Virus record (IMG/VR): IMGVR_UViG_2698536395_000029
Reading direction: 5' to 3' (one strand)
DNA: 15,001 bases
Source: a virus
Taxonomy: Duplodnaviria > Heunggongvirae > Uroviricota > Caudoviricetes
The translations under genes and the position numbers were made by a program. Position 1 is the stretch's first letter; every line of letters begins with the position of its first letter. Positions 1,159 to 15,001 of this stretch are shown piece after piece. Under the pieces are notes generated by a model. That model was not told where the DNA came from. It made no database searches and saw only the letters and a program-made list of their open reading frames with translations.

Positions 1159-2820
1159 TTACACCCCGCTAAATTCTTCCAGTTTCTGGCGGTGGCTGTC
1201 GCTTATATCAAAAGCAAAATCCTCATGCTCTGCCTGGAATGTACCAAACGCCATCAGCGCCGCTACGCTCGGGTCTATCTTGTTCGGTGATTTTTTCTTG
1301 TTCGGCTTGATATTGGCGTTCGCGTCACTCTGCATCACGACGTTACTCATCGACCAGGACAACACCGGATCGCCACGATGCACAATCACCCTGCGGTTAA
1401 CAAAAACTTCGAACGATTTCGCCGCCGGACTGAATCTGAGGTAGGTTTGCGGGAACGGCTCCACCTCAAAACCAGCCCCCTGTAATTGCGTCCTGAGATG
1501 CGTGGCGTTCCACGTATCAAAGCCCACCAGCCTGATATTAAATTTCTCCGCATCCTGCATGATGTCATCTCTGATCCGGTCGTAATCAATGCAGTCACCT
1601 GGCGTTGTGCGTATCCAGCCCGCTTTAGCCCACTGGCGATAGACAGCGCGGTTTTTATTGGCGGGGTTCTGTAGCTGGAACTCCGGCAGATAATGACGGG
1701 AAACCAGCATGATATTTTTACCGACCGGAAAGGCATAGCACACGCTGGAAATATCGCTGGTTGATGATAAGTCCAGCCCCGCGTAACACTCCTGCCCGTG
1801 TAAATCTTCCTCCGTGAACGTTCCGGCACACTCAGCCCATGCGCCGTTACCCATCCACGGGGTAGCCCCCTGGCACCAGATATTAAATCGCTTTGTCATC
1901 ATCTCCACCCACTGCGACGGAATACCCCGCGCTTTCTGGATGGTTGAGGCCAGTTTTTCACGATCGACGGAAACATCAATATTAGGGTTCGCCTTTATCC
2001 ACATCGCCGGATCATCAACCTCGTTTTCGTCGTCCAGCTCGTAAATCAGTACAAAAATTGAATCGTTAACCTCTTCGCCGTCCAGGATCTGGCAGCAATA
2101 ATCATAGTGCTGTTTACAGGCTGAAACGACGTTGCTGCCTGATGTGGTAATGGCAAATAACAGCCCTTCGGGACGTGCGCCCATCCCCAGCTCAAGCGCG
2201 GAATAAACGCCGTTATCGGGGTGCAAGTGGTATTCGTCCACGATGGAAAGGCTTGGGTTTGTTCCCTCGATGGTTGCCGCTTTTGCTGCCAGCGGCTTTA
2301 ACAGGCTGTTGCTTTTCGGGTGTATCACCTTATGCGCCTGAATATTCACCCGCCTGCGTAACGGTCGGGATAAAAGGCACATCTGACGCGCATCATCAAA
2401 GACGATCCGCGCCTGGTCACGGCTCACCGCTGCGGTGTAGATATCCTGCTGACCGTTCTCCATAATCAGAAACCAGTTAGCCAGAATCGCGGCGGTCGTG
2501 GATTTCGCATTTTTGCGCGGCACTTCGATAAAGGCGCTCGTGTATTTGCGCCGTCCGGTGGCCTTAACCTTAAAGCCGAGGATGCACGCAAAGGCGAACT
2601 GCTGCCACGGCTCCAGCTCAATGGGTCTGCCACGCATCGGTCCTTTTACGTGCGGGCACACCCTGGAAAAGGCAATAAACCGCTCCACAACCTCACGATC
2701 GAACGTGTAAAGGGGGCTTTTAAGGTCCGAAAAGTACCGTTTAACGGCCTGTTTCAGCCGTTTACAGGCCGGAATTTTGCCCGTTTTTACGTCTTCTGCG
2801 TACTTATTCCAGGCGGTCAA
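1159..2820 (-). CDS. terL: Terminase large subunit (Terminase_1-like ATPase/nuclease)
   Basis: 553 aa; Walker-A-like PRKNAKST near residue 100; size and position after TerS. Start per ORF track is TTG at 2820, overlapping the TerS stop; next in-frame ATG is ~60 codons in, so the exact start is uncertain. Confidence 0.9.
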   Translation of the reverse strand: MTAWNKYAEDVKTGKIPACKRLKQAVKRYFSDLKSPLYTFDREVVERFIAFSRVCPHVKGPMRGRPIELEPWQQFAFACILGFKVKATGRRKYTSAFIEVPRKNAKSTTAAILANWFLIMENGQQDIYTAAVSRDQARIVFDDARQMCLLSRPLRRRVNIQAHKVIHPKSNSLLKPLAAKAATIEGTNPSLSIVDEYHLHPDNGVYSALELGMGARPEGLLFAITTSGSNVVSACKQHYDYCCQILDGEEVNDSIFVLIYELDDENEVDDPAMWIKANPNIDVSVDREKLASTIQKARGIPSQWVEMMTKRFNIWCQGATPWMGNGAWAECAGTFTEEDLHGQECYAGLDLSSTSDISSVCYAFPVGKNIMLVSRHYLPEFQLQNPANKNRAVYRQWAKAGWIRTTPGDCIDYDRIRDDIMQDAEKFNIRLVGFDTWNATHLRTQLQGAGFEVEPFPQTYLRFSPAAKSFEVFVNRRVIVHRGDPVLSWSMSNVVMQSDANANIKPNKKKSPNKIDPSVAALMAFGTFQAEHEDFAFDISDSHRQKLEEFSGV

Positions 2821-3160
2821 GCTCGTCCTCTTCTTCTGTTTCCGGTGGGTTTTTACGGCGGCTTATCGGGTCAAAACCGAGCAAGGAGGCCATTTTTATC
2901 ATCACCCTTTCAGCGTCTGATTTCGCGCTTAATGCGGGGTTTCTGCTCTCGCCGCCCTGACTGTTAACAATGCTGAACCCGCGCGCCGCAAGGTCTGCGA
3001 CGGCTTTCCGGTAAATGGAGTAGTTGACACAATACAGTTCCAGATTGCTCCAGTCGGCGGGGGTCAGGTCTCCCCGTTCCGCAAGCTGCCGCGATTTTTC
3101 CCGCCACTGCTTCACGGCGATGTCATCCAGGTAGGCGGGGGCTTTCGGTGGTCTTGCCAT
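2804..3160 (-). CDS. terS: Terminase small subunit (P27-family-like)
   Basis: 118 aa; N-terminus MARPPKAPAYLDD and the YCVNYSIY motif are typical of P27-type TerS; sits immediately upstream of and overlapping TerL. Confidence 0.8.
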   Translation of the reverse strand: MARPPKAPAYLDDIAVKQWREKSRQLAERGDLTPADWSNLELYCVNYSIYRKAVADLAARGFSIVNSQGGESRNPALSAKSDAERVMIKMASLLGFDPISRRKNPPETEEEDELDRLE

Positions 3161-3448
3161 GCTTATTTTTCGTCAGATTATTTTTCAAAAAATTCCCGTG
3201 CATAAAAATTTGAGGAGGCGTTCGGTGCCCGGCGGGGTCGGGTTTGTCCTGAAAACGCCCCCCACCCCGTCATACAGCCTCATCAGCGATTGCGGAAACA
3301 TTCCATAACCTCGCGGTCACGGTCGGTTAATCGCTTCGCTGTGATGCGTTCTGCGCGTCCTGACGCTTTATCTTTATGCCCTGTTTCCTGTGTCTTCCAT
3401 GCGTCACGCTGCCTTATAAGTCCACGGATAAGGCGGTTTTGTTCCCGC
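3161..3448. other. Candidate cos (packaging) region between HNH and TerS
   Basis: 288-bp non-coding gap in the HNH-gap-TerS-TerL arrangement where HK97-like cos phages carry cos. Contains the G/C-rich tract ggtgcccggcggggtcgggtttgtcc (~3225-3250). Position-based inference only. Confidence 0.35.
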
Positions 3449-3889
3449 TCATTCATCAGCGTCATACATCCAGTTATTGCGGTTAGCGGCCCGTTCTTCC
3501 TCTTCACGAAATCCACCTGCGGCACGCTTGCTTTTTGTTGCCGGATCAAGCCACTTCGTTTTCTGGTTATGACACGCCTGGCACAATGGCTGATGGTTCC
3601 ATTCGGGCCAGAAGAGAACATCATCACCGCCATTAATCGGGATAATGTGATCCACCACCACGGCGGGCGTATATATCCCCTTCTCAAGGCATCGCACGCA
3701 TAACGGGTTTTTACTCAGATACATGGCGCGGTATTTTTCCCACTGTCTGGAGTACCCACGCGCGCGGCGGTGTCCTCGTCTGGCATCCTCTGCACGCCAT
3801 GCCGCCCGCCTGTGCTCCTCACACTTGCCGGACTTAACGCGCCTGTTACAGCCTGGTTCTGTACATCGTCTTAATGGTTGCCACGGCAT
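3449..3889 (-). CDS. HNH endonuclease (terminase-associated)
   Basis: 146 aa; cysteine pairs CTEPGC and CVRC, then DHIIP...N...W..NHQPLCQACHNQKT, an HNH signature. ATG at 3889 overlaps the connector stop. Confidence 0.9.
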   Translation of the reverse strand: MPWQPLRRCTEPGCNRRVKSGKCEEHRRAAWRAEDARRGHRRARGYSRQWEKYRAMYLSKNPLCVRCLEKGIYTPAVVVDHIIPINGGDDVLFWPEWNHQPLCQACHNQKTKWLDPATKSKRAAGGFREEEERAANRNNWMYDADE

Positions 3890-4520: not shown

Positions 4521-5728
4521 TCCGGTTTTTCTCCCTCGCTGATTTTTACTTCCTGTTTCCATGCCTGGCTGAACTCATCACCACCATCACGCGGGGACAG
4601 CCCTTCACGTTCGCGGGCTTCGTTCGGGCACATAACGCCGGATTTGATGCCGCGTTCATAGGTGGCAAAGCGTTCGCCAGGTGTGGCCCGTAACAGGTCC
4701 GCGCTGTCAAACTCCACCTGATACCGGATACCAGGTACAGGCGAGGCCACCAGCAGGGCGTTTTTTATCTGCTGCTCAAAGTTCGCCAGCCACGGGCGCA
4801 TTGTCATGGTGAGAAATGCGCGGCTTGCCTCGCTGAAATTGCTGTAGGTGCTGTTGCTGTATTCCTGCAGAAAAATCGGCGAGACGTTGAACATTCGGGC
4901 GATGTCTTCAATGGTGAAGCGACGGGAGGCCAGCCATTCAGCATCCTGATTACTCATGCCCAGCTGCTGATAGCTCATACCCCCTTCAAGGATGGGCGTT
5001 TTTCCGGCGTTTCTGGCCCCTTTGTAGCGTTCCAGTGCGGCTAATGCCTGTTTGCCCTTCACGCCGTCCAGCCATTCGCCTGACGTGATAACCCCTGCCG
5101 CCATCATGCCATCACGCATCACGCTCGCGCCGTGGCGTTGTTGGGCCAGCCCAAGCCCCAGCGATTCGCGGCAGATGGTTACAGGTGAGCGCCCCATAAA
5201 ACCGTCATCCGTGGAGTAACGAAGGTGGAGAACCTCCCACGGTAAATAGTTGCGGGTGTTTCCGGTGTAGGCGTCAGTGATGCAGTAGCGCCAGTTGTGT
5301 TCGCCTGTCTGCTCCACGTTCACCGACTGCGGCGGGTAAGGATGTAAAGCCACCGGAAAACCATCACGCCCCCACTGAATCACCGCATAAGCATTACCGT
5401 TTAACAGGCAGTGGCGGATCATCATTCGCTTAAACTGGTAGGGGGTTTGCCATGCGTTCGGGCGCTCGTTGAGGATGTGATCGACCGGATGAGAATCAAG
5501 CCACTCGCGGGCCTCCTTCCCCTTCTCATTGCGTACCAGGTACAGGTAACACGGCATGGTAGCCACCGCCTCAGAGATGACCGTCACGGCGTTCATGACG
5601 GCGGGCAGTGATTCCGCTGTCCCCGATGATACGTACTCACCCGCCCCCGTGTTCGATGTGCCAGCCAGCGCCATAAACTCATCAAGCGTCATGCTGCGCT
5701 GCTCTTTTTTTCTTCTGAAAGGCCACAT
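4517..5728 (-). CDS. Portal protein (HK97 family)
   Basis: 403 aa; length, composition and position between protease and adaptor; ATG at 5728 two nt after the protease stop. Confidence 0.85.
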   Translation of the reverse strand: MWPFRRKKEQRSMTLDEFMALAGTSNTGAGEYVSSGTAESLPAVMNAVTVISEAVATMPCYLYLVRNEKGKEAREWLDSHPVDHILNERPNAWQTPYQFKRMMIRHCLLNGNAYAVIQWGRDGFPVALHPYPPQSVNVEQTGEHNWRYCITDAYTGNTRNYLPWEVLHLRYSTDDGFMGRSPVTICRESLGLGLAQQRHGASVMRDGMMAAGVITSGEWLDGVKGKQALAALERYKGARNAGKTPILEGGMSYQQLGMSNQDAEWLASRRFTIEDIARMFNVSPIFLQEYSNSTYSNFSEASRAFLTMTMRPWLANFEQQIKNALLVASPVPGIRYQVEFDSADLLRATPGERFATYERGIKSGVMCPNEAREREGLSPRDGGDEFSQAWKQEVKISEGEKPE

Positions 5729-5729
5729 A

Positions 5730-6302
5730 TCACACCCCCGCTAAATCCGCCCACCAGCGGCGATTATCCGCACGCGGCATTTTTTCGGGGTGCTGCTCGT
5801 ACAGGGAGCGGCGGGCCAGCTCCACGCCGGAATCAGGGTAAGCCGGTACGGATGTGACGGTAATTTCGTACAGTTCCGCAACCAGCACGGTGCGCACGCA
5901 TGGATCTGTTGTGGTATCCCATACATCCTTACGGGAACGAAAGCCAAAGCTCATGCCGGATATATCACCACGTTTAACCAGTTCGATAACGTCCCGCCCT
6001 GTGCTGGTATCCGGTGGGGTCAGTTCAAAGCGTAACCCTGTTTCGTCCTCTTCCAGTTTCAGCGTGCCGGAACGGGTACGCCCCAGCAACATGCTGTGGT
6101 CATGCTCATACAGGCCGCGAACGTCATTACCCGCCGCAAGCCATTCAGTAAACGCTCCCCGCTGGAATTTTTCGTAAAACTCCCCCCATAGCAGCTCTGA
6201 AAGCTTATCCCAGCGAACAACGTAGCCTGTAAGCGTGTTGCTGGCGCTGGTGGTGATTTCCGATGACCGGATTTCCATACTCTTCATAATTTTTTCACCC
6301 AT
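5730..6302 (-). CDS. Prohead maturation protease (HK97 / U35-S78 family)
   Basis: 190 aa; motifs GYVVRWDKLS...GAF...LYEHD typical of HK97 prohead protease; lies directly after the capsid gene. Start may be ATG 6302 or ATG 6287. Confidence 0.8.
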   Translation of the reverse strand: MGEKIMKSMEIRSSEITTSASNTLTGYVVRWDKLSELLWGEFYEKFQRGAFTEWLAAGNDVRGLYEHDHSMLLGRTRSGTLKLEEDETGLRFELTPPDTSTGRDVIELVKRGDISGMSFGFRSRKDVWDTTTDPCVRTVLVAELYEITVTSVPAYPDSGVELARRSLYEQHPEKMPRADNRRWWADLAGV

Positions 6303-6311
6303 AAAACACTA

Positions 6312-6331
6312 AAGGGGCTTTTAAGCCCCTT
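6312..6331 (-). terminator. Stem-loop with T-rich tail between capsid and protease (likely partial terminator/attenuator)
   Basis: AAGGGGC-ttttaa-GCCCCTT; on the minus strand the hairpin is followed by TTTAGTGTTTTAT, 10 nt after the capsid stop. Confidence 0.4.
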
Positions 6332-6341
6332 CTGTATGCTG

Positions 6342-7499
6342 TTAATCGTCGTCCTGTGGCAGTTCCAGAATCTTGATCGCGTTCGAATCCACCACGCCAC
6401 CGCCTAAATATTTCTGCGTGAAAATTTTGATGAAGCCCGGCTCTGTGAGGTTGTCCGGTCTGGTGCGAACACCTGTTTCGTGATCAACAATGTAGTAACC
6501 GCGTTTGAAGTCACCCAGGGCAATAACGTTATCAGGCATAAACTCCAGATATTCGACCGGAAGGCCCAGCAACGTATCAGGATCACCCGCCTGTAAACGG
6601 TCGCGCCAGATATAATCACCGTTCGCGTTCTTCACCTTCTGAAGTTTTGCCGCCGTCGTGGAGTTAACCACCCAGACCGCGTTTTTGCGGTATTTTTTAC
6701 GTAATGCAAATTTCAGGTCGATCAGCGGGTCCGCAGATGTCCACGCCAGAGATTCGGAAGGTTTAATTACCTGCAACGTACCAAAATCACGCTCTTTGTC
6801 GTTCTTCTCTGCACGGGGTACGGATAAAAAACCTTTTGCTTTTTTGTCACCGTCGCCCACAACCAGATCGCTTTCTTCGGTTTCCGTGAAGGTGTCGCCA
6901 ATCTCACCCGTCAGCCATGAAAGGATGTCCACATCGGAAAAATCCACGATTTCCTGTGTGGTGCGCGGGTACGCATAGACCGGATACAGCTTAATGCTCA
7001 CCTCGTTAATCTGCGGGGGGCTGGTCTGTTCGCGTGCCTTACCCTCTTCACCGTGGTTAACGGTCGCACCGCCAGCGGAAACAAGCTGCTTAAACTCGTT
7101 GCTGCTGATTTTCTTCACGGTACAGATGCGGCGCATGGTGGATTCATCCGCCAGCATTCGCATGATTTCGGTGTTCAGTTCAGGGATAACGGTATAACCA
7201 CCATCAGCGGGAACGCCTGTACTTAATGCGCGGGTTTCACCTGTCAGAATGTAGTTGCGTAGTTCTGCGGGGTCAGTGGTCTGACTGCTTTTACCTGGCT
7301 TGCTGCGCTCTTCGTCTGCAATGGCTTCAAGGCGGGAAATGTCTTTATCGAGGGATTCAGCTTTAGCGCGTAATTCGTCAAATTTTGCGCCCTCAGCATC
7401 GTTAAGACTGCGGTTTTCTTTTTCCGCGTTCTCCAGCATGTCGCGCATCTGATTTTTAATGGCGGTTTTCTGCTGGCGTAATTCGATTATTCTCGGCAT
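6342..7499 (-). CDS. Major capsid protein (HK97 fold) with N-terminal coiled-coil delta/scaffold-like region
   Basis: Start set at ATG 7499 (MPRIIELRQQ); the track's upstream start at 7547 is GTG. The charged, helical N-terminal ~100 aa followed by a ~280-aa body is the HK97 pattern. Confidence 0.85.
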   Translation of the reverse strand: MPRIIELRQQKTAIKNQMRDMLENAEKENRSLNDAEGAKFDELRAKAESLDKDISRLEAIADEERSKPGKSSQTTDPAELRNYILTGETRALSTGVPADGGYTVIPELNTEIMRMLADESTMRRICTVKKISSNEFKQLVSAGGATVNHGEEGKAREQTSPPQINEVSIKLYPVYAYPRTTQEIVDFSDVDILSWLTGEIGDTFTETEESDLVVGDGDKKAKGFLSVPRAEKNDKERDFGTLQVIKPSESLAWTSADPLIDLKFALRKKYRKNAVWVVNSTTAAKLQKVKNANGDYIWRDRLQAGDPDTLLGLPVEYLEFMPDNVIALGDFKRGYYIVDHETGVRTRPDNLTEPGFIKIFTQKYLGGGVVDSNAIKILELPQDDD

Positions 7500-7713: not shown

Positions 7714-7739
7714 GAACAACGTGGAACAACCACGAACAA
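7714..7739 (+). promoter_or_regulatory. Phased hexamer array GAACAA-cgtg-GAACAA-ccac-GAACAA (10-bp period) upstream of the head operon
   Basis: Hexamers at 7714-7719, 7724-7729 and 7734-7739, about 215-240 bp upstream of the capsid ATG. Confidence 0.5.
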
Positions 7740-7750
7740 ATAATTTACAA

Positions 7751-7779
7751 AAAATGACAAAAAGCCGGATTGCTCCGGC
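7751..7779 (-). terminator. Rho-independent terminator after the 74-aa orphan gene
   Basis: Minus strand GCCGGA-gcaa-TCCGGC followed by TTTTTGTCATTTT; 12 nt after the stop at 7791. Confidence 0.6.
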
Positions 7780-7790
7780 TGTATGCGTGC

Positions 7791-8015
7791 TCAGTCCCTG
7801 ATCCCTTTCAGAAATTCTATCAATGCATCTATCTGTTCAGGATTTACCGCCAGCATTTCACCGGATAGAGCACATCTAACAAAACCATGCTGATCCTTTT
7901 CAATCAGTGCGCCCGTCTCCAGGAATGCGCGGTAATCATTGATGCTCATCGTCTCCATGTTGTCAGCATGGTATTTATCACGCTGTTTTAATATCTCATC
8001 AAATTTCATCGGCAT
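7791..8015 (-). CDS. Hypothetical protein (74 aa), orphan gene bracketed by two near-identical terminators
   Basis: ATG at 8015 with AGAGGA SD 8 nt upstream (MPMKFDEILKQ...); the track's longer start at 8093 has no SD. Acidic, no family recognised. Confidence 0.55.
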   Translation of the reverse strand: MPMKFDEILKQRDKYHADNMETMSINDYRAFLETGALIEKDQHGFVRCALSGEMLAVNPEQIDALIEFLKGIRD

Positions 8016-8423: not shown

Positions 8424-8834
8424 TCAGAACGGAATACCGTCACCGTAAGGGTCATCGCCTCCCGCTGGTGGCTGATTACCCTGTGTGCCTGTGGTTTTGC
8501 GTCTGTTCCCGCCAGGAAGTGCCGCACGGGCACTGATTACGCTGTCTGCAATAACCTGATAACCCTGCCGCGTTTCCCCATTCTGTCCGGTCCACTGGCT
8601 GACCTGCATCGTGCCGGATACGCTGGCAACGTCGCCTTTTTGATGTTTAGCCAGGAAGTCGGCCTGCTTACCAAATGCGATGACCGATAGCCATAACGTC
8701 GCCTGCCCATCCTGCGCCTGACTACATGGCAGCGATACCGCCATACGCGCCAGCGTCATCGGTGTACCCTTGCTGGTCTGTTTTACCTGCGGGTCGTCCA
8801 CCAGCCGCCCGTAAGCTGCTATCTGTGCTGTCAT
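8424..8834 (-). CDS. ssb: Single-stranded DNA-binding protein
   Basis: 136 aa; the OB-fold core aligns with E. coli SSB landmarks (LWLSVIAFGKQADFLAKHQKGD vs [22 protein letters not shown]); Gly/Pro/Gln-rich linker; acidic tail DDPYGDGIPF like the SSB DDDIPF tip. Confidence 0.8.
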   Translation of the reverse strand: MTAQIAAYGRLVDDPQVKQTSKGTPMTLARMAVSLPCSQAQDGQATLWLSVIAFGKQADFLAKHQKGDVASVSGTMQVSQWTGQNGETRQGYQVIADSVISARAALPGGNRRKTTGTQGNQPPAGGDDPYGDGIPF

Positions 8835-9109
8835 GATTCCACCTCTCCGGTTTTAACGTTGATGGTTGTTACCTGTTCCGCTTCGGCAATCTCCCGCTCT
8901 GTCAGCGTGGCAAAATTTGCCGCCGTCGTGGTCATGAATGCGCTTATCAGTTCGGGATGTGCTTTCGCGTATCCTTCCCCCGCGTGGCGGTCTATCGTTC
9001 TGATTGCCACCTTTAAAGCGTGCTCTGTCATGTCTAACGCGCGATATTTCGGTTCTGTTCTGTCTCTGCGTTTTTTGAGTGATTTATTAAATTTCCCTGA
9101 AGTGTGCAT
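8831..9109 (-). CDS. Hypothetical protein (92 aa), first gene after the origin
   Basis: ATG at 9109; stop overlaps the SSB start (ATGA). No family recognised. Confidence 0.5.
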   Translation of the reverse strand: MHTSGKFNKSLKKRRDRTEPKYRALDMTEHALKVAIRTIDRHAGEGYAKAHPELISAFMTTTAANFATLTEREIAEAEQVTTINVKTGEVES

Positions 9110-9158
9110 ATTTATTTTTACCCCCTCGTTTAAAAAGTTTTGAGTTGTGCCTCCCCTT

Positions 9159-9382
9159 GTCTACCTTATCTACCTTAGTGGCCCTCATACCAGTAATGGC
9201 GCGGCTTTCAGCTGGGTAGAGTGCTTTTATCCACTATCTACCCCGTGTCTACCTCCCTGTCTGATTCAGGTAAAATCAGGTAGAGAGGGTAGATAGTGGG
9301 TAGACAGTAAAAAAAGGCTATCTACCTAACTTAATGCACTGAATTAAATGTATTTTTCTTTACTCAGGTAGACAGGGTAGAC
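9159..9382. repeat. Iteron-type replication origin
   Basis: At least 11 copies of the 7-mer GGTAGA[C/T/G] or its complement in both orientations (9159, 9168, 9215, 9236, 9247, 9279, 9288, 9299, 9320, 9367, 9376), often at 9-11 bp spacing, flanking an AT-rich stretch at 9330-9366. Lies directly downstream of the primase stop. Confidence 0.75.
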
Positions 9383-9397
9383 AGCAATTACAAAAAA

Positions 9398-11152
9398 TTA
9401 TAAAAACGCGTCGCACTCGTCTGTTGTTATTGCGTTAGTCTGCGTTACTCCCTTAACTTTCCGCGTAATATATTCATGTCCGTAAACTTTCGCGGCTGGC
9501 TTCATAGCCTTGCCAAAGTCATTTACGTTTAGCGGTTTGCTCCTGCCTGCGTACGCCATAAACGCCAGATAGACGCGGTAAAGGCTGTTTCTGGTCGTGT
9601 ACTTCACTGAATCGCCACCGCCGCCCATCATCAGGCCGCGTGCTTCCTCCAGAAAATTCAGGAACTGGCAAAACTCAATAACCGGATCCGTCTGTTGCTT
9701 TATTGCCAGAGCTTCATCACCGTCACGCTGTTCCAGTAGTAAAGCCCGTGCCTTCTCAGGGTCGGTAAAGTTCGCCAGCAATCGGCGGATAATGACAGGG
9801 ATTTCAGCCGCGATCTTTTCCGGTAGCTCCCTGTCTTTTTCGGCCTCACTGACGATATTGTCGAAACGGAAAATCACGCGACGACGTGCCACACCTCCGG
9901 CCCGTTCGGTGAATATCATCGGGTTATTGTTGGTCGCCAGCACCACCGCCCTGATTACAGCCGTGAAACGCTTTTCGTATTTCGGGTTAATTTCCACGGG
10001 GTCACCGCCCGTGATTTTCTTGATGCCCGTTCCTTCGCCTGTATATTTCGGCTGGTCAGCCAGGACGATAAGACGACTCCCGACAACCTGCGCACGTCCA
10101 CCAGCATCATCAAGCGATGTCATTTCAGCGCTTACCGTGTTCTGTTTCCCTGCCAGAAGGCTGGCTATGTGCGTGAATGTACTTTTACCGCTCCCGCCGT
10201 CTCCGGTGGCCTCAATAAACATCTGCCAGTCGTACCGGTTCGCCATAATCATGTACAGCGCGGCACATATACGCATCATCTTGCGCGGGTCTTTTCCGGC
10301 TGCGTGCTCAAGCCATTTATGAAAGTTTGGCGCGTTATCGCGGATGTTCTCCCCTGGTGCTGGTGGCGTGTACTCAATGCCGTTGTGCGTGGTGATCCAG
10401 TTCTCCGGCGTGTGCGGGGAAAATTCCCCCGTTTTCAGGTCAAGCGCACCATTGGCGAACGGCAGCAAATCGCCGGACGGCTCGCCCATTGGTTCGGCAA
10501 TAACTTTTAACGCTTCCACGGCGTTATTGATTACGCGCTTGCTGAAAGTGGCCCTGTGCTCTGAATAGATCGCCACCATTTCGCGGCTAAGTTCCATTGT
10601 GCTGACCGGACACCATACCCCGCCGCGCCATACGTGAACGATTTCACTTTCAGGATGTACGCAAACGCCATCAAAGCGATCGGCAAGCAGCTGCGCGCGC
10701 TCACTGTCCGCCATCTGCGAAAGTTGCGCCTTTTGCTTTACCGGAAGCTCAATGACCAGACCATCAGAAAGATTCTGGCGCTCACGAGCCAGATATTCGC
10801 GCCAGTTCTCCACCTTCTGACCGTGCATACCATCAGGGTAAAAATTTGCATCCTGTACGCCTGCCGCCGCCAGCTTCTGACCAATCGCCTTTATCATTAC
10901 TGGCGCAAGATATCCGGCCCTGAATATGCGCACGGATTTTCTGCCTTCCGGCACAATTTGCAGCTTATCCAGTTCGGATAACTGCTGCTCCCCAAGCCAC
11001 ACAGGAGGCTCATTATCTCCGGCCATACGCGCGTCATGTTCCTGCCATTGTTTTGCGTGTGACCAGGCATCACTACCCGCAAAAATAATGACTTCTGTTT
11101 CTTTGTGTTTTATGCCGCGTGACTGCTGTTTTACGTTCGGTGCCAGTTTCAT
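9398..11152 (-). CDS. Primase/helicase replication protein (P4-alpha-like; D5-type NTPase C-terminal domain)
   Basis: 584 aa; Walker A GDGGSGKST at ~residue 318 with the surrounding D5/P4-family helicase context; N-terminal primase-like region; iteron origin immediately downstream. Confidence 0.85.
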   Translation of the reverse strand: MKLAPNVKQQSRGIKHKETEVIIFAGSDAWSHAKQWQEHDARMAGDNEPPVWLGEQQLSELDKLQIVPEGRKSVRIFRAGYLAPVMIKAIGQKLAAAGVQDANFYPDGMHGQKVENWREYLARERQNLSDGLVIELPVKQKAQLSQMADSERAQLLADRFDGVCVHPESEIVHVWRGGVWCPVSTMELSREMVAIYSEHRATFSKRVINNAVEALKVIAEPMGEPSGDLLPFANGALDLKTGEFSPHTPENWITTHNGIEYTPPAPGENIRDNAPNFHKWLEHAAGKDPRKMMRICAALYMIMANRYDWQMFIEATGDGGSGKSTFTHIASLLAGKQNTVSAEMTSLDDAGGRAQVVGSRLIVLADQPKYTGEGTGIKKITGGDPVEINPKYEKRFTAVIRAVVLATNNNPMIFTERAGGVARRRVIFRFDNIVSEAEKDRELPEKIAAEIPVIIRRLLANFTDPEKARALLLEQRDGDEALAIKQQTDPVIEFCQFLNFLEEARGLMMGGGGDSVKYTTRNSLYRVYLAFMAYAGRSKPLNVNDFGKAMKPAAKVYGHEYITRKVKGVTQTNAITTDECDAFL

Positions 11153-11913: not shown

Positions 11914-12145
11914 AACCACCCCCATTTTCACAATCAGCAATCAGGATGGCTTTAGCCTCATTCAGCGCCATATCAGCACTAAGTTGCATAACCGCCAGCG
12001 AATGAGGAACGAAAGCCCCGGCATATTCTGTTTCACTGGTGTCGTGCTTATGCGCCCTGTCAGCAATAACAGAAATATCAATCAGCGCATGCATTAGCGT
12101 TATGATGGCTTCGGCGGCTGCGTCCGGACGGGTGTTATTGCACAT
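11906..12145 (-). CDS. Hypothetical protein (79 aa)
   Basis: ATG at 12145 preceded by CAGGAGG; overlaps the stop of the 68-aa gene. Confidence 0.5.
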   Translation of the reverse strand: MCNNTRPDAAAEAIITLMHALIDISVIADRAHKHDTSETEYAGAFVPHSLAVMQLSADMALNEAKAILIADCENGGGYA

Positions 12146-12341
12146 GGCACACCTCCTGACGAATACGGGCAGCGAATACCATCACGCAGCCAGCCGGAGA
12201 TTGCTGGCGTGCTTCCTGTTCGCTGGTGGCCTCAATGGTAATCACGCGCGGTTGTGCCGTGCTCAGGGCGATAAAACGCCAGATGTATTTATTCAGGTCG
12301 TGCGAGTCCCGCCCTTGCGGGTGTGTGGTATGATTTCTCAT
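12135..12341 (-). CDS. Hypothetical protein (68 aa); first gene of the replication operon, possibly Icd-like
   Basis: ATG at 12341 with GAGGT SD. It is the only plausible part of the 342-aa track ORF; the upstream 274 codons are Cys/Arg/Ser-rich antisense of real plus-strand genes. The motif YIWRFIALS...EARQQ...VFAAR vaguely recalls Icd-like proteins (low confidence). Confidence 0.5.
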   Translation of the reverse strand: MRNHTTHPQGRDSHDLNKYIWRFIALSTAQPRVITIEATSEQEARQQSPAGCVMVFAARIRQEVCHVQ

Positions 12342-12379
12342 AGCTACCTCGATACTTTCGCTATCGTTGGTGGTTAGAA

Positions 12380-12410
12380 GCCCTGCGAGTGGTAACGACA
12401 CTTGCGGGGC
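12380..12410. promoter_or_regulatory. Imperfect 12-bp inverted repeat in the divergent control region
   Basis: GCCCTGCGAGTG-gtaacga-CACTTGCGGGGC (10/12 complementary at DNA level); lies in the 5' leader of the minus-strand operon. Confidence 0.45.
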
Positions 12411-12438
12411 TTTGCATTTATGCACCTTGATAATCTCA

Positions 12439-12474
12439 AGGTGTGGCCCACTATATGCTTTAGGTGTGGCCCAC
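12439..12474. promoter_or_regulatory. Two exact 13-bp direct repeats AGGTGTGGCCCAC (candidate operator) overlapping a sigma70-like promoter
   Basis: Copies at 12439-12451 and 12462-12474, 23 bp apart; TTGATA at 12427-12432 and TATACT at 12506-12511 are plausible promoter hexamers upstream of the gene starting at 12541. Confidence 0.5.
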
Positions 12475-12540
12475 GTCAAGGGTTTTATTTGTGCTTTTTC
12501 TGTGTATACTGTCCCCCACCAATCCAACAGAGGAATAGAA

Positions 12541-12720
12541 ATGGCAACGGGTACAACAAACGCAAAATCACAAGCTCTAAAGGCTCGTGTACCACACGAA
12601 ATAGTAAACGCCATGGAATCAGTGAAAGAATCAGGCGAAAGCACATCACAATTCATCATTGCGTCAATGCAAGGCGAGATCAAACGCCGCCAGCGCCGCA
12701 AGGCCAAAGAATCAGAATAA
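12541..12720 (+). CDS. Small DNA-binding protein, probable ribbon-helix-helix fold (59 aa)
   Basis: ATG at 12541 with AGAGGAA SD. The pattern LKARVPHEIVNAMESVKESGESTSQFIIASMQGEI (strand, helix, G-S/T turn, helix) and a basic tail fit CopG/Arc-type RHH proteins. Confidence 0.55.
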   Translation: MATGTTNAKSQALKARVPHEIVNAMESVKESGESTSQFIIASMQGEIKRRQRRKAKESE

Positions 12721-12762
12721 TCACTATCAGCGCCGTGGTGTGAGGTATTACGGCGCATTGCT

Positions 12763-12951
12763 ATGCAGGACAACACAATGACCGATAAAGAATTGACCAA
12801 AACATTATCACCGGCACGGAAAAGACGGCGCAGAAAGATAGAACATGAATCAGAAAGATTCGCGCCATGTGCTTTTGCCCTTGAGCAATTCCTTAAAGAG
12901 TACAGGGAAAAGCGCTCATTGCAGGTATGGCAACGAACTGAACCAGACTGA
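12763..12951 (+). CDS. Hypothetical basic protein (62 aa; start may be 12778)
   Basis: ORF 43 nt downstream of the RHH gene on the same strand, with a poly-basic stretch ARKRRRRK; the SD is weak, so coding status is uncertain. Confidence 0.4.
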   Translation: MQDNTMTDKELTKTLSPARKRRRRKIEHESERFAPCAFALEQFLKEYREKRSLQVWQRTEPD

Positions 12952-13036
12952 TTGCATTGCCCACCAGCCTGATAGCGGCTATCATCCCCGTGCTTATGTT
13001 TGGGATCACACACACAAACGGCGCAGCGGGTTATCT

Positions 13037-13064
13037 GTTCAGAAAGGCGGCTCCATTTCGGGGC
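13037..13064 (+). terminator. Rho-independent terminator ending the plus-strand RHH operon
   Basis: GCGGCTCC-atttc-GGGGCCGC (8-bp stem with one G-U pair) followed by T7. Confidence 0.75.
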
Positions 13065-13220
13065 CGCTTTTTTTATGCCTGAAAAACCCCAATTTTGTGG
13101 TTTTCCAGTCTCACCAGGGCGAACGAATCCCCGCCCACGTTCTGGCGTATATTCAATCTTCATGGTTATAGCTCTGTGTTCAGATGATTGATGTGTGGCG
13201 GCTGTGTGCCGCCAGCGTGA

Positions 13221-13409
13221 TTAATGAACTGCCTTGCAGCTATCCTTCCAGGCCAGAACCTCGGATAAAGACCAGCCAACGGAACGACCGCCAAGTTTAC
13301 GACGTGATGGGAATTGTCCGGCCTTTTCCAGGCGGTAGCGGCATGAGCGGCTAAGGCCTGTTAGCTTTTCGCATTCTTTTTCACGTATAAACCGATCAGT
13401 GCTTAACAC
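13221..13409 (-). CDS. alpA: AlpA-family transcriptional regulator / excisionase-like HTH protein
   Basis: 62 aa; LTGLSRSCRYRLEKAGQFPSRRKLGGRSVGWSLSEVLAW matches the AlpA signature (TGLSRST.YR....G.FP.P.KLG.R.V.W...EV..W). Start is GTG at 13409 with AAGGGGG SD. Confidence 0.85.
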   Translation of the reverse strand: MLSTDRFIREKECEKLTGLSRSCRYRLEKAGQFPSRRKLGGRSVGWSLSEVLAWKDSCKAVH

Positions 13410-13783: not shown

Positions 13784-15001
13784 TTATTTTCTTCTGGCTA
13801 CTGGTAGCGTGGTTACGTTTTCATGTGTTCCCGCCAGTATCCCTAACCGCTCCGTCCACATATCCAGCGCATTGCGTTTAGCATCCAGATAACGGGAATG
13901 ATTATAAACTCGCTGCATTCCTGGCATCTGATGACCTGTAAGCTGCTCCACGACATGCGGATCAACGCCTAAATCGTTCAGCATGGTTGTAAAGGTGCGC
14001 CGGATGTCATGCAGTGACCAGTGAGGATGATTAAGCCTCCTGTGCGCTAATCTTCCATACTGCGATACGCTGGCCTCCTGTTTCGCTTCCCCCAGCAATA
14101 AGCCCGTGTGCCTGTTCTGCTCCACCAGCTGCGTGACGAACGGCAGGATCGCTTCCGGTATGGGCCGGAATATTGCGACCTTCGTTTTGCTGTGCTCCTT
14201 CGGAACGGTCCATAGCATTTCCGTAAAATCCCACTCCCCGATCTCCGATAGCCTCAGTTCTACCGTCCTGGCTCCGAAGACAATCAGGAGGCGGATTAAC
14301 GCGACGTAGTAAGGGGAAAATATTTTTTTGTCCAGTGCCTGCAATAATTCGCCAAGTTCTTTGTTACTTAAGACACGTTCGCTTATATCCGGTTTTTTCC
14401 CAACGTCCGCCACGTTCAGATCGTCCAGAACGTTGCTGATTGCATAGCGCCGCCTACGGCAGAACTTAAGCGCCTGTTTGCACGCCTGTAGCACGAATCC
14501 GGCAGTAACAGGCGTTCGCTTTGCCACCTGGTCAAAACAGGCCAGCCAGTGCCGTAGCTCGCATTTATCCAGCGGCATAGCACCAATCTGCTGTATTACG
14601 TGATTATTAAGTCGCCTTTTCAGGGCGATATAATCCACGCGGTTTTCCTTTACGTAATACTCAAGCCAGTAGGTGAGCGCATCGCCAACCGTTACGGGCT
14701 TTAACGCTTCCTGTACGGTGTAATTCATCTCATGACGTGGATTTTTCCCCTCAGCCAGCCATGTGCGACACTGTGCGGCTTTTTCCCTGGCTGCTTTCAG
14801 GCTCAGATCAGGATAACTTCCCAGCTTAATGCGTTCGGGTCGTGTCTCCCTTCCCGTTCCGGCCCTGTATGTGAAATACCAGGTCAATTTCCCTGATGTT
14901 AAATATTTCACGCTCAGGTTTCCGCCATCACTATAAAACGTGTTTTTCTCCGCTGGCTTACCATGAAGTTTCCTTAGCAAGGTATCGCTCAGTTTGTTCA
15001 T
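13784..15001 (-). CDS. int: Tyrosine integrase (P4/CP4-57-type, N-terminal arm-binding domain plus catalytic domain)
   Basis: 405 aa; ATG at 15001, the window edge. The N-terminus (LSDTLLRKLHGKPAEK...YSDGGNLSVKY...WYFTYR) follows the P4-type arm-binding pattern; the C-terminus has HDIRRT and RVYNHSRY consistent with the H-x-x-R and catalytic Tyr. Confidence 0.9.
   Translation of the reverse strand: MNKLSDTLLRKLHGKPAEKNTFYSDGGNLSVKYLTSGKLTWYFTYRAGTGRETRPERIKLGSYPDLSLKAAREKAAQCRTWLAEGKNPRHEMNYTVQEALKPVTVGDALTYWLEYYVKENRVDYIALKRRLNNHVIQQIGAMPLDKCELRHWLACFDQVAKRTPVTAGFVLQACKQALKFCRRRRYAISNVLDDLNVADVGKKPDISERVLSNKELGELLQALDKKIFSPYYVALIRLLIVFGARTVELRLSEIGEWDFTEMLWTVPKEHSKTKVAIFRPIPEAILPFVTQLVEQNRHTGLLLGEAKQEASVSQYGRLAHRRLNHPHWSLHDIRRTFTTMLNDLGVDPHVVEQLTGHQMPGMQRVYNHSRYLDAKRNALDMWTERLGILAGTHENVTTLPVARRK

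Follow-up and report, generated by a model that had tools for sequence, protein, structure and literature searches.

An EcCICFT073-type iteron origin beside the initiator-helicase gene of a capsid-forming PICI in E. coli tqsA

A cf-PICI in tqsA and the repeat array downstream of its replicase gene

The stretch of DNA that we analysed (15,001 nucleotides in all, hereafter the window) is a capsid-forming PICI (cf-PICI), a phage satellite inserted in E. coli tqsA, and is neither a phage nor a plasmid. The genes identified in it, from integrase to terminase, all lie on the minus strand. In order, they encode a tyrosine integrase, AlpA, several small proteins (one of them Icd-like), a DUF4222 protein and a 584-aa replicase; the repeat array that is the subject of this report comes next, and after it, still on the minus strand, come genes for a 92-aa protein, an SSB and PerC, and then a head/terminase module. 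That module comprises an HK97-type major capsid protein, a prohead protease, a portal, head-closure and connector proteins, an HNH endonuclease, TerS and TerL, and the gene set matches the one described for cf-PICIs by Alqurainy et al. (bioRxiv 10.1101/2022.09.08.507074). We saw neither tail nor lysis genes in the window. The features that define a PICI, namely an integrase, AlpA and an att site, are all present: the att core ATAACAGCA, which has been reported for PICIs in tqsA, occupies 129–137. It gives one boundary of the island; the opposite boundary is past the integrase and outside the edge of the window. In E. coli O26:H11 the same region, in which the ori segment is identical, is annotated as an insertion into tqsA that splits the gene.

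Several other parts of the island bear on its annotation. A mechanically called 342-aa ORF (12135–13163, minus strand) matches an Icd-like cell-division inhibitor over its last ~48 residues alone; in related records the Icd-like end is a 68-aa gene, with a YlcI/YnfO-family gene annotated on the opposite strand and a pseudogene upstream, and the 342-aa ORF probably does not represent a single real gene. Upstream of the capsid gene (~7715–7790, minus strand), a terminator-like hairpin, CAGCCGGAGCAATCCGGCTTTTT, is followed by TTTTTGTAAATTATTTGT and then by three TGTTC-containing repeats placed ~10 bp apart (tgttcgtgg ttgttccacg ttgttcactg). The element TTTTTGTAAATTATTTGT likewise stands upstream of the capsid gene in the Klebsiella-type cf-PICI LR881103.1 (~3618–3690), and this region may be a control region of the packaging operon. 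LR881103.1 is itself filed as a phage ('Escherichia phage vB_KppS-Ant', 16.5 kb); it carries a PICI-type replicase, an iteron ori and then a capsid gene, is of cf-PICI size, and looks like a satellite that was deposited as a phage.

The repeat array fills the 288-bp intergenic gap (9110–9397) between the 584-aa ORF (9398–11152) and the 92-aa ORF (8831–9109), both on the minus strand; the features of the locus are listed in Table 1. At least 11 GGTAGA[C/T/G] heptamers in both orientations had been predicted here, and we found exactly 11 matches to GGTAGAB in 9159–9382. Six are on the plus strand (9215, 9279, 9288, 9299, 9367 and 9376) and five on the minus strand (9159, 9168, 9236, 9247 and 9320), and the seventh base is C in five of them, T in four and G in two. 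These are also the only matches in the 15,001-base window, for which dinucleotide-preserving shuffling of the whole sequence gave a mean of 2.32 matches and a maximum of 7, so that 11 was reached in none of 200 shuffles. Elsewhere in the window the bare hexamer GGTAGA occurs as a single isolated copy, at 14259 inside int, and no second iteron cluster is present in the 15 kb; a cluster of hexamers with one mismatch at 7816–7880 was rejected, as it falls within a coding region and has no iteron-like pattern. A distance of 15 bp separates the end of the last iteron from the stop codon (9398–9400) of the 584-aa gene, which bears out the predicted position of the array directly 3' of a replication gene. 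The further claim that the iterons surround an AT-rich core held in part. In particular, the AT-rich stretch is real (9327–9366; 40 nt, 23% GC), but it lies off-centre and divides the array into groups of nine and two iterons.

The array has instead its own centre of symmetry. About 9270.5, ten of the 11 iterons pair off at exactly mirrored positions, giving five pairs, a number reached by none of 20,000 random placements, and the inverted repeats I1 and I2 have one common centre. Read in gene orientation, with gap lengths in brackets, the layout is < [3] < [40 nt, 23% GC] > [16] < [5] < [3] < [25] > [5] > [16] < [40 nt, 55% GC] > [3] >. In the gene-proximal half, the 40-nt AT-rich spacer separates the iteron at 9367 from the inverted iteron at 9320, and a 16-nt spacer precedes the remaining three. 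The distal half has a degenerate sixth copy at ~9256–9264, just past its edge; with the one or two degenerate copies at 9256–9264 and 9269–9274 the array comes close to 12 iterons, and two E. coli variants carry an extra near-iteron in the central spacer. The leader of the 92-aa gene adjoins the ori and is probably outside the ori proper. A single-strand fold of 9150–9390 was more stable than those of shuffled sequences (z = -4.2); we set it aside as evidence for a cruciform or an RNA, since it restates the dyad symmetry.

Table 1. Coordinates of the repeat array, the adjoining replicase gene and other features of the island
Feature	Position	Strand	Basis or description
Integrase (Int)	13784–15001	-	PICI gene set
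AlpA	13221–13409	-	PICI gene set
584-aa replication initiator-helicase, annotated 'DNA primase family protein'	9398–11152	-	Pfam D5_N, DUF5906, Pox_D5; TIGR01613
SF3-type helicase core, residues 194–432	9857–10573	-	PDB 7OLA match, E = 3.8e-15
C-terminal origin-binding domain, residues 488–579, putative iteron reader	9416–9691	-	PDB 1KA8 match, E = 7e-7
Natural exchange cassette (ori, helicase and origin-binding domain), replaced as a unit in EcCI042	9086–10777	-	blastn
Whole iteron array, origin of replication (very probable)	9159–9382		11 perfect GGTAGA[C/T/G]; ~225-bp quasi-palindrome centred on 9270.5
Gene-proximal half, P4 ori1-like layout	9279–9382	-	Iterons 9376, 9367; 9320 inverted; 9299, 9288, 9279
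AT-rich spacer, 23% GC, putative DNA-melting site	9327–9366		36–40-nt spacer at the equivalent place in P4 ori1 and relatives
Central 25-nt spacer	9254–9278		Dyad centre; degenerate iteron remnants TCAGACAGG and GGTAAA
Distal half, mirror image of the gene-proximal half	9159–9253	+	Iterons 9159(-), 9168(-), 9215(+), 9236(-), 9247(-)
Mirror spacer, 55% GC, holding the conserved non-iteron block	9175–9214		Spacer composition and variant alignment
Conserved 21-bp non-iteron block CAGTAATGGCGCGGCTTTCAG	9191–9211		18 of 21 columns invariant
Leader and ribosome-binding site of the downstream 92-aa gene (8831–9109)	9110–9143	-	~29 of 32 columns invariant in E. coli variants
terS	2804–3160	-	~6 kb from the iteron array

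The 584-aa initiator-helicase and related modules in other PICIs

The 584-aa replicase scores above the cut-off for TIGR01613 (P4-family primase C-terminal domain), and its residues 141–579 are 40% identical to residues 324–762 of the P4 alpha protein (440 residues, E = 7e-113). Within this span, the C-terminal segment of the protein matches PDB 1KA8, the crystal structure of the P4 alpha origin-binding domain, and the helicase core matches 7OLA, the self-loading helicase PriRep5 of SaPI5, with a similarity that reflects distant homology and not close family membership. No segment of the replicase aligns to the primase region of alpha (residues 1–323). Residues 1–140 (10733–11152, minus strand) match no Pfam family; they match phrog_2850 (unknown function) and, weakly, a primase PHROG. 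The gene had been predicted to encode a primase, and what stands of that description is a replication initiator-helicase with an SF3 helicase and an origin-binding domain, no primase domain having been detected in the protein. The 'primase' label is annotation, and initiator-helicase is what can be demonstrated. Because the SF3 helicase and the origin-binding domain alone are detectable, the footprinting that had been proposed is better named for an 'initiator-helicase' than for a 'primase', and with no primase domain found, host DnaG may be needed for priming.

A near-identical module is known from EcCICFT073, the prototype Gram-negative PICI, in which lambda-type cos sites were tested separately from the ori. 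EcCICFT073 Pri (c1495, 584 aa) is identical to the window replicase at 581 of 584 residues (99%). Its ori occupies the same 288-bp intergenic position and aligns base for base with 9159–9382 at 94.6% identity; all 11 GGTAGA cores are kept in the same places, and the differences (~5% of positions) fall in spacers or in the seventh iteron base, none of them in a hexamer core. The flanking genes are also common to the two elements, with DUF4222 upstream and the small ORF, SSB and PerC downstream. The elements themselves differ, however: EcCICFT073, which belongs to the classical PICIs, lies between ycfD (roxA) and phoQ, lacks a terminase and has another capsid-related module, whereas the window is a cf-PICI in tqsA with an HK97-type capsid, portal, protease, HNH and TerS/TerL.

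The EcCICFT073 pri-ori has been cloned, and a thermosensitive plasmid that carried it was kept at 44 °C (Fillol-Salom et al. 2018, ISME J, PMC6092414, Fig. 2b). [quoted passage not shown] In addition, over-expression of AlpA in a non-lysogen resulted in uncontrolled EcCICFT073 replication that needed both pri and int (PMC6092414). The same authors described an origin organisation common to PICIs, in which iterons lie 3' of pri/rep in two sets that flank an AT-rich region, and stated that it is shared by no other known replicon (PMC6092414). In effect, therefore, the cloning experiment that had been proposed for the window has been done already on the near-identical CFT073 module, and the more functional claims of the original prediction gain support from it. 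The reading of the array as an iteron origin agrees with the pri- and ori-dependent replication of that module; the predicted satellite-type layout corresponds to the organisation described as the shared PICI origin layout; and the predicted helper-independent replication after induction has its parallel in the AlpA-driven replication of EcCICFT073 in a non-lysogen, that is without helper phage (all PMC6092414). The window also shows each of the features by which a Gram-negative PICI ori is recognised, with the array located 3' of pri/rep, an AT-rich spacer within it, a PICI context around it, and identity to the tested module. The repeat array is an EcCICFT073-type PICI origin, a feature already known and here found in a cf-PICI; the reading is not new because a near-identical initiator-plus-origin module was cloned and shown to replicate in 2018.

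A second classical PICI, EcCI042, is informative as a natural exchange. EcCI042 lies at the same tqsA site with the same att core, and its flanks, including the SSB and perC genes, are common to the window (at the protein level, SSB and PerC of EcCI042 and of the O26:H11 island are identical). In a blastn comparison, the two elements are 87–94% identical on both flanks, the alignment ending at 9085 and resuming at 10778. Between these points (9086–10777) the two are unrelated. The swapped segment holds the ori and replicase residues ~126–584, and its EcCI042 counterpart (5727–6959) encodes a RepA-family helicase rather than a D5/alpha-type helicase with an origin-binding domain. The EcCI042 iterons are AAAGTGAGG-like and occupy a ~200-bp gap, and they again lie directly 3' of the replicase. 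The first 122–125 residues of the replicase are common to the window and EcCI042; since these residues are shared by D5/alpha-type and RepA-type replicases, the N-terminal domain is a common module mounted on unrelated helicases. Together with the covariation described below, the EcCI042 swap indicates that the repeats travel with the helicase and the DNA-binding domain, and not with the downstream operon or the packaging genes.

Conservation of the array and its interpretation

We compared seven E. coli variants that have diverged, in the ori region, to 60–73% identity with the window. Among these, 77% of the iteron-core columns are invariant versus 24% of the non-core columns (Fisher p = 1.7e-13). 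One stretch outside the iterons, the 21-bp block CAGTAATGGCGCGGCTTTCAG at 9191–9211, is conserved as strongly as the iterons across these diverged E. coli PICIs, with only 11% of columns invariant in the remainder of the GC-rich spacer. None of the Serratia, Morganella and P4 sequences that we examined contains it. The block might act in cis as an additional site, perhaps for a host factor or for priming, which would matter here because the initiator has no recognisable primase domain. In E. coli PICIs the hexamer CTGAAA occurs close to the single inverted iteron of the distal (crr-like) module (9206–9211, minus strand, in the window), and it occurs also in both P4 crr repeats (~4350 and ~4530) and in LR881103.1 (~3441–3446); this recurrence could reflect a shared motif or a coincidence. 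We also considered a DnaA-box-like sequence, TTATCCACT (9227–9235, plus strand), which matches TTATCCACA at 8 of 9 positions and lies between two iterons. It is present in the closest variants only (the window, CFT073 and Shigella), is missing from the more diverged E. coli origins, and is probably a chance occurrence. The origin region as a whole is widespread: 564 of 5,426 complete E. coli genomes contain a match, all of them chromosomal, and 439 of the 564 hold at least 80% of the region.

Beyond E. coli, a scan of genome contigs with the replicase returned three loci, a number that suffices for a cross-genus comparison and is too small for statistics. The relatives compared have replicases that are 53% (Serratia), 52% (Morganella) and 41% (the Klebsiella-type cf-PICI, 'phage vB_KppS-Ant') identical to that of the window. 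They keep the two-module layout, with spacers of 36–40 nt, and the two long spacers of the Klebsiella and Morganella relatives are each AT-rich (18–22% GC). Their iterons are GTGAAC/ATGAAC, of the P4 type (TGTTCAC). The class of the origin-binding domain tracks the class of the iteron: the Serratia, Morganella and Klebsiella relatives have a domain of the P4 class (YLYHAYLxYM ... DWLP), and the GGTAGA-type elements all fall in one other sequence class of the domain. A literature search on the iteron sequences found nothing relevant to them.

Taken together, these findings make it very probable that 9159–9382 is the vegetative replication origin of the cf-PICI in E. coli tqsA. The reading builds on what the comparisons demonstrate, namely the array and its position, the selective conservation of the iterons, the way in which they are inherited together with the helicase and DNA-binding domain, and near-identity to a module of demonstrated replication function. 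Weighing against it are the facts that replication was demonstrated on the CFT073 module, the ori of which is ~5% different, that loss of the CFT073 ori lowered colony numbers significantly but not to zero, that the AT-rich stretch lies off-centre, and that the protein has no detected primase domain. Signals for the downstream operon may also reside in the region, and the conserved block at 9191–9211 falls outside what the model explains. In the mechanism that we propose, a helper phage would induce AlpA-dependent transcription of the island, leading to production of the adjacent 584-aa P4-alpha-like protein. The C-terminal winged-helix origin-binding domain of this protein would then read the GGTAGA iterons, as may be supposed by analogy with the homologous P4 domain, which reads a different sequence. 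Each of the two mirror-image sets of about six iterons might load one hexameric SF3 helicase, the two being placed head to head, and the duplex would presumably open at the 40-nt AT-rich spacer. The excised circle would be copied by host replication proteins together with the island's own SSB, which is encoded two genes downstream.

The next gene lies directly downstream of the array, the replicase gene is followed by no terminator, and the conserved leader (9110–9143) and the non-iteron block (9191–9211) lie beside or within it, all of which would suit an array that is mainly an operator or promoter through which a transcription factor, or an autoregulating replicase, controls the 92-aa ORF, SSB, PerC and the packaging genes. 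Plasmid iteron origins are, moreover, often autoregulatory sites as well. However, a search of 8800–9700 for sigma-70-like promoters and intrinsic terminators found none on the gene strand (and a chance-level match on the plus strand). In addition, EcCI042 has the same downstream genes, with 94% DNA identity up to 9085, and yet has entirely different repeats along with a different helicase; the layout recurs at P4 ori1, which does not lie upstream of an equivalent operon; and deletion of the near-identical CFT073 ori impairs replication. We consider it quite improbable that control of the operon is the main function of the array, although a secondary regulatory role may accompany its role as an origin.

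Within an origin, the two halves of the array need not be equivalent. According to its annotation, P4 needs both an ori and a crr, each made of alpha-binding type-1 repeats, and the distal half (9159–9253), with its GC-rich spacer, might accordingly be a crr-like cis enhancer or copy-control site that pairs with the gene-proximal half rather than a second loading site. The locus lies 3' of the window replicase, as P4 crr lies directly 3' of the alpha gene; the AT-rich spacer is confined, in E. coli, to the gene-proximal half; and CTGAAA is common to the distal spacer of the window and the spacers of the two P4 crr repeats. Nevertheless, in the way they are laid out the iterons of the distal half mirror P4 ori1 and not a crr unit, and the AT-rich character of both long spacers in the Klebsiella and Morganella relatives fits two equivalent halves, making the crr-like reading unlikely. 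A packaging signal (cos or pac) read by the small terminase of the island is far less probable still. TerS proteins often recognise short repeats, and the island encodes TerS, TerL and HNH, but the array is ~6 kb from terS, co-varies with the helicase and DNA-binding domain instead of the packaging module, and is present in near-identical form in EcCICFT073, which has no terminase genes and whose lambda-type cos was tested apart from its ori. As for a chance cluster or non-functional repeat debris, the absence of any whole-window shuffle that reached 11 matches, the selective conservation of the iteron cores, and the retention of the layout across four genera and in P4 leave it a negligible probability.

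With the array read as an origin, it is this origin and its cognate initiator that decide how autonomously the satellites of a widespread E. coli and Shigella family replicate, as well as their incompatibility and specificity. The finding adds little in itself, as the module had already been characterised; its practical value is one of annotation, an ori now being marked in a cf-PICI. It also places cf-PICIs and classical PICIs in possession of one common rep-ori cassette that is exchanged as a unit. The points that are new are modest ones: the array is exactly dyad-symmetric, its architecture matches P4 ori1, the class of the origin-binding domain pairs with the type of iteron, and a non-iteron block is conserved. 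These observations could guide mechanistic studies of the assembly of self-loading SF3 helicases at satellite origins.

Comparison with phage P4 and SaPI origins

The closest structural counterpart of the gene-proximal half is P4 ori1, in which the layout is < [4] < [37, 22% GC] > [16] < [5] < [4] <. Both consist of two iterons, an AT-rich spacer, one inverted iteron, 16 nt and three further iterons, with successive gaps of 3, 40, 16, 5 and 3 nt in the window versus 4, 37, 16, 5 and 4 nt in P4. The extended iterons are similar as well (GGTAGACAG in the window, GGTGAACAG in P4), although the type-1 iteron of P4 is TGTTCACC and the core in the window is GGTAGA. The replicase likewise has the alpha-type combination of an SF3 helicase and a C-terminal origin-binding domain, but carries an unrelated 140-aa N-terminal domain in place of the primase region of alpha. 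In P4, moreover, the ori and crr are ~4.5 kb apart, with crr next to the alpha gene, whereas the window has a single compact locus of two inverted modules next to its replicase gene. The element as a whole, being controlled by AlpA and having its own capsid, is a PICI and not a P4-like satellite.

The resemblance to SaPIs is of a more general kind. The SaPI Rep and ori were reportedly the subject of work by Ubeda et al. in 2007. The distant similarity of the helicase core to SaPI5 PriRep5, described above, gives the window a SaPI Rep-homologous initiator. In SaPI origins, 6–12 penta- or hexanucleotide iterons lie 3' of rep, split by an AT-rich region and opposed on its two sides, and the SaPI Reps are self-loading SF3-type helicases in which a C-terminal winged helix binds the iterons (Qiao et al. 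2022, PMC9371898). With its 11 hexamer-core iterons the window falls within this range, and an arrangement of at least two iterons per side in opposed orientation is found in it also, where the minus-strand iteron at 9320 faces the plus-strand iterons at 9367 and 9376 across the AT-rich spacer. Sequence similarity to the SaPIs is, however, distant only; their iteron sequences are unrelated and their hosts Gram-positive, and their control by divergent stl/str differs from the unidirectional AlpA control of the window element. The comparison with P4 raises the possibility, which we advance tentatively and rate at a little under an even chance, that the PICI ori is the same evolutionary device as the P4 ori, built as two inverted ori1-like modules of six iterons that load two alpha-like hexamers head to head, with the 21-bp block at 9191–9211 added as a further cis site.
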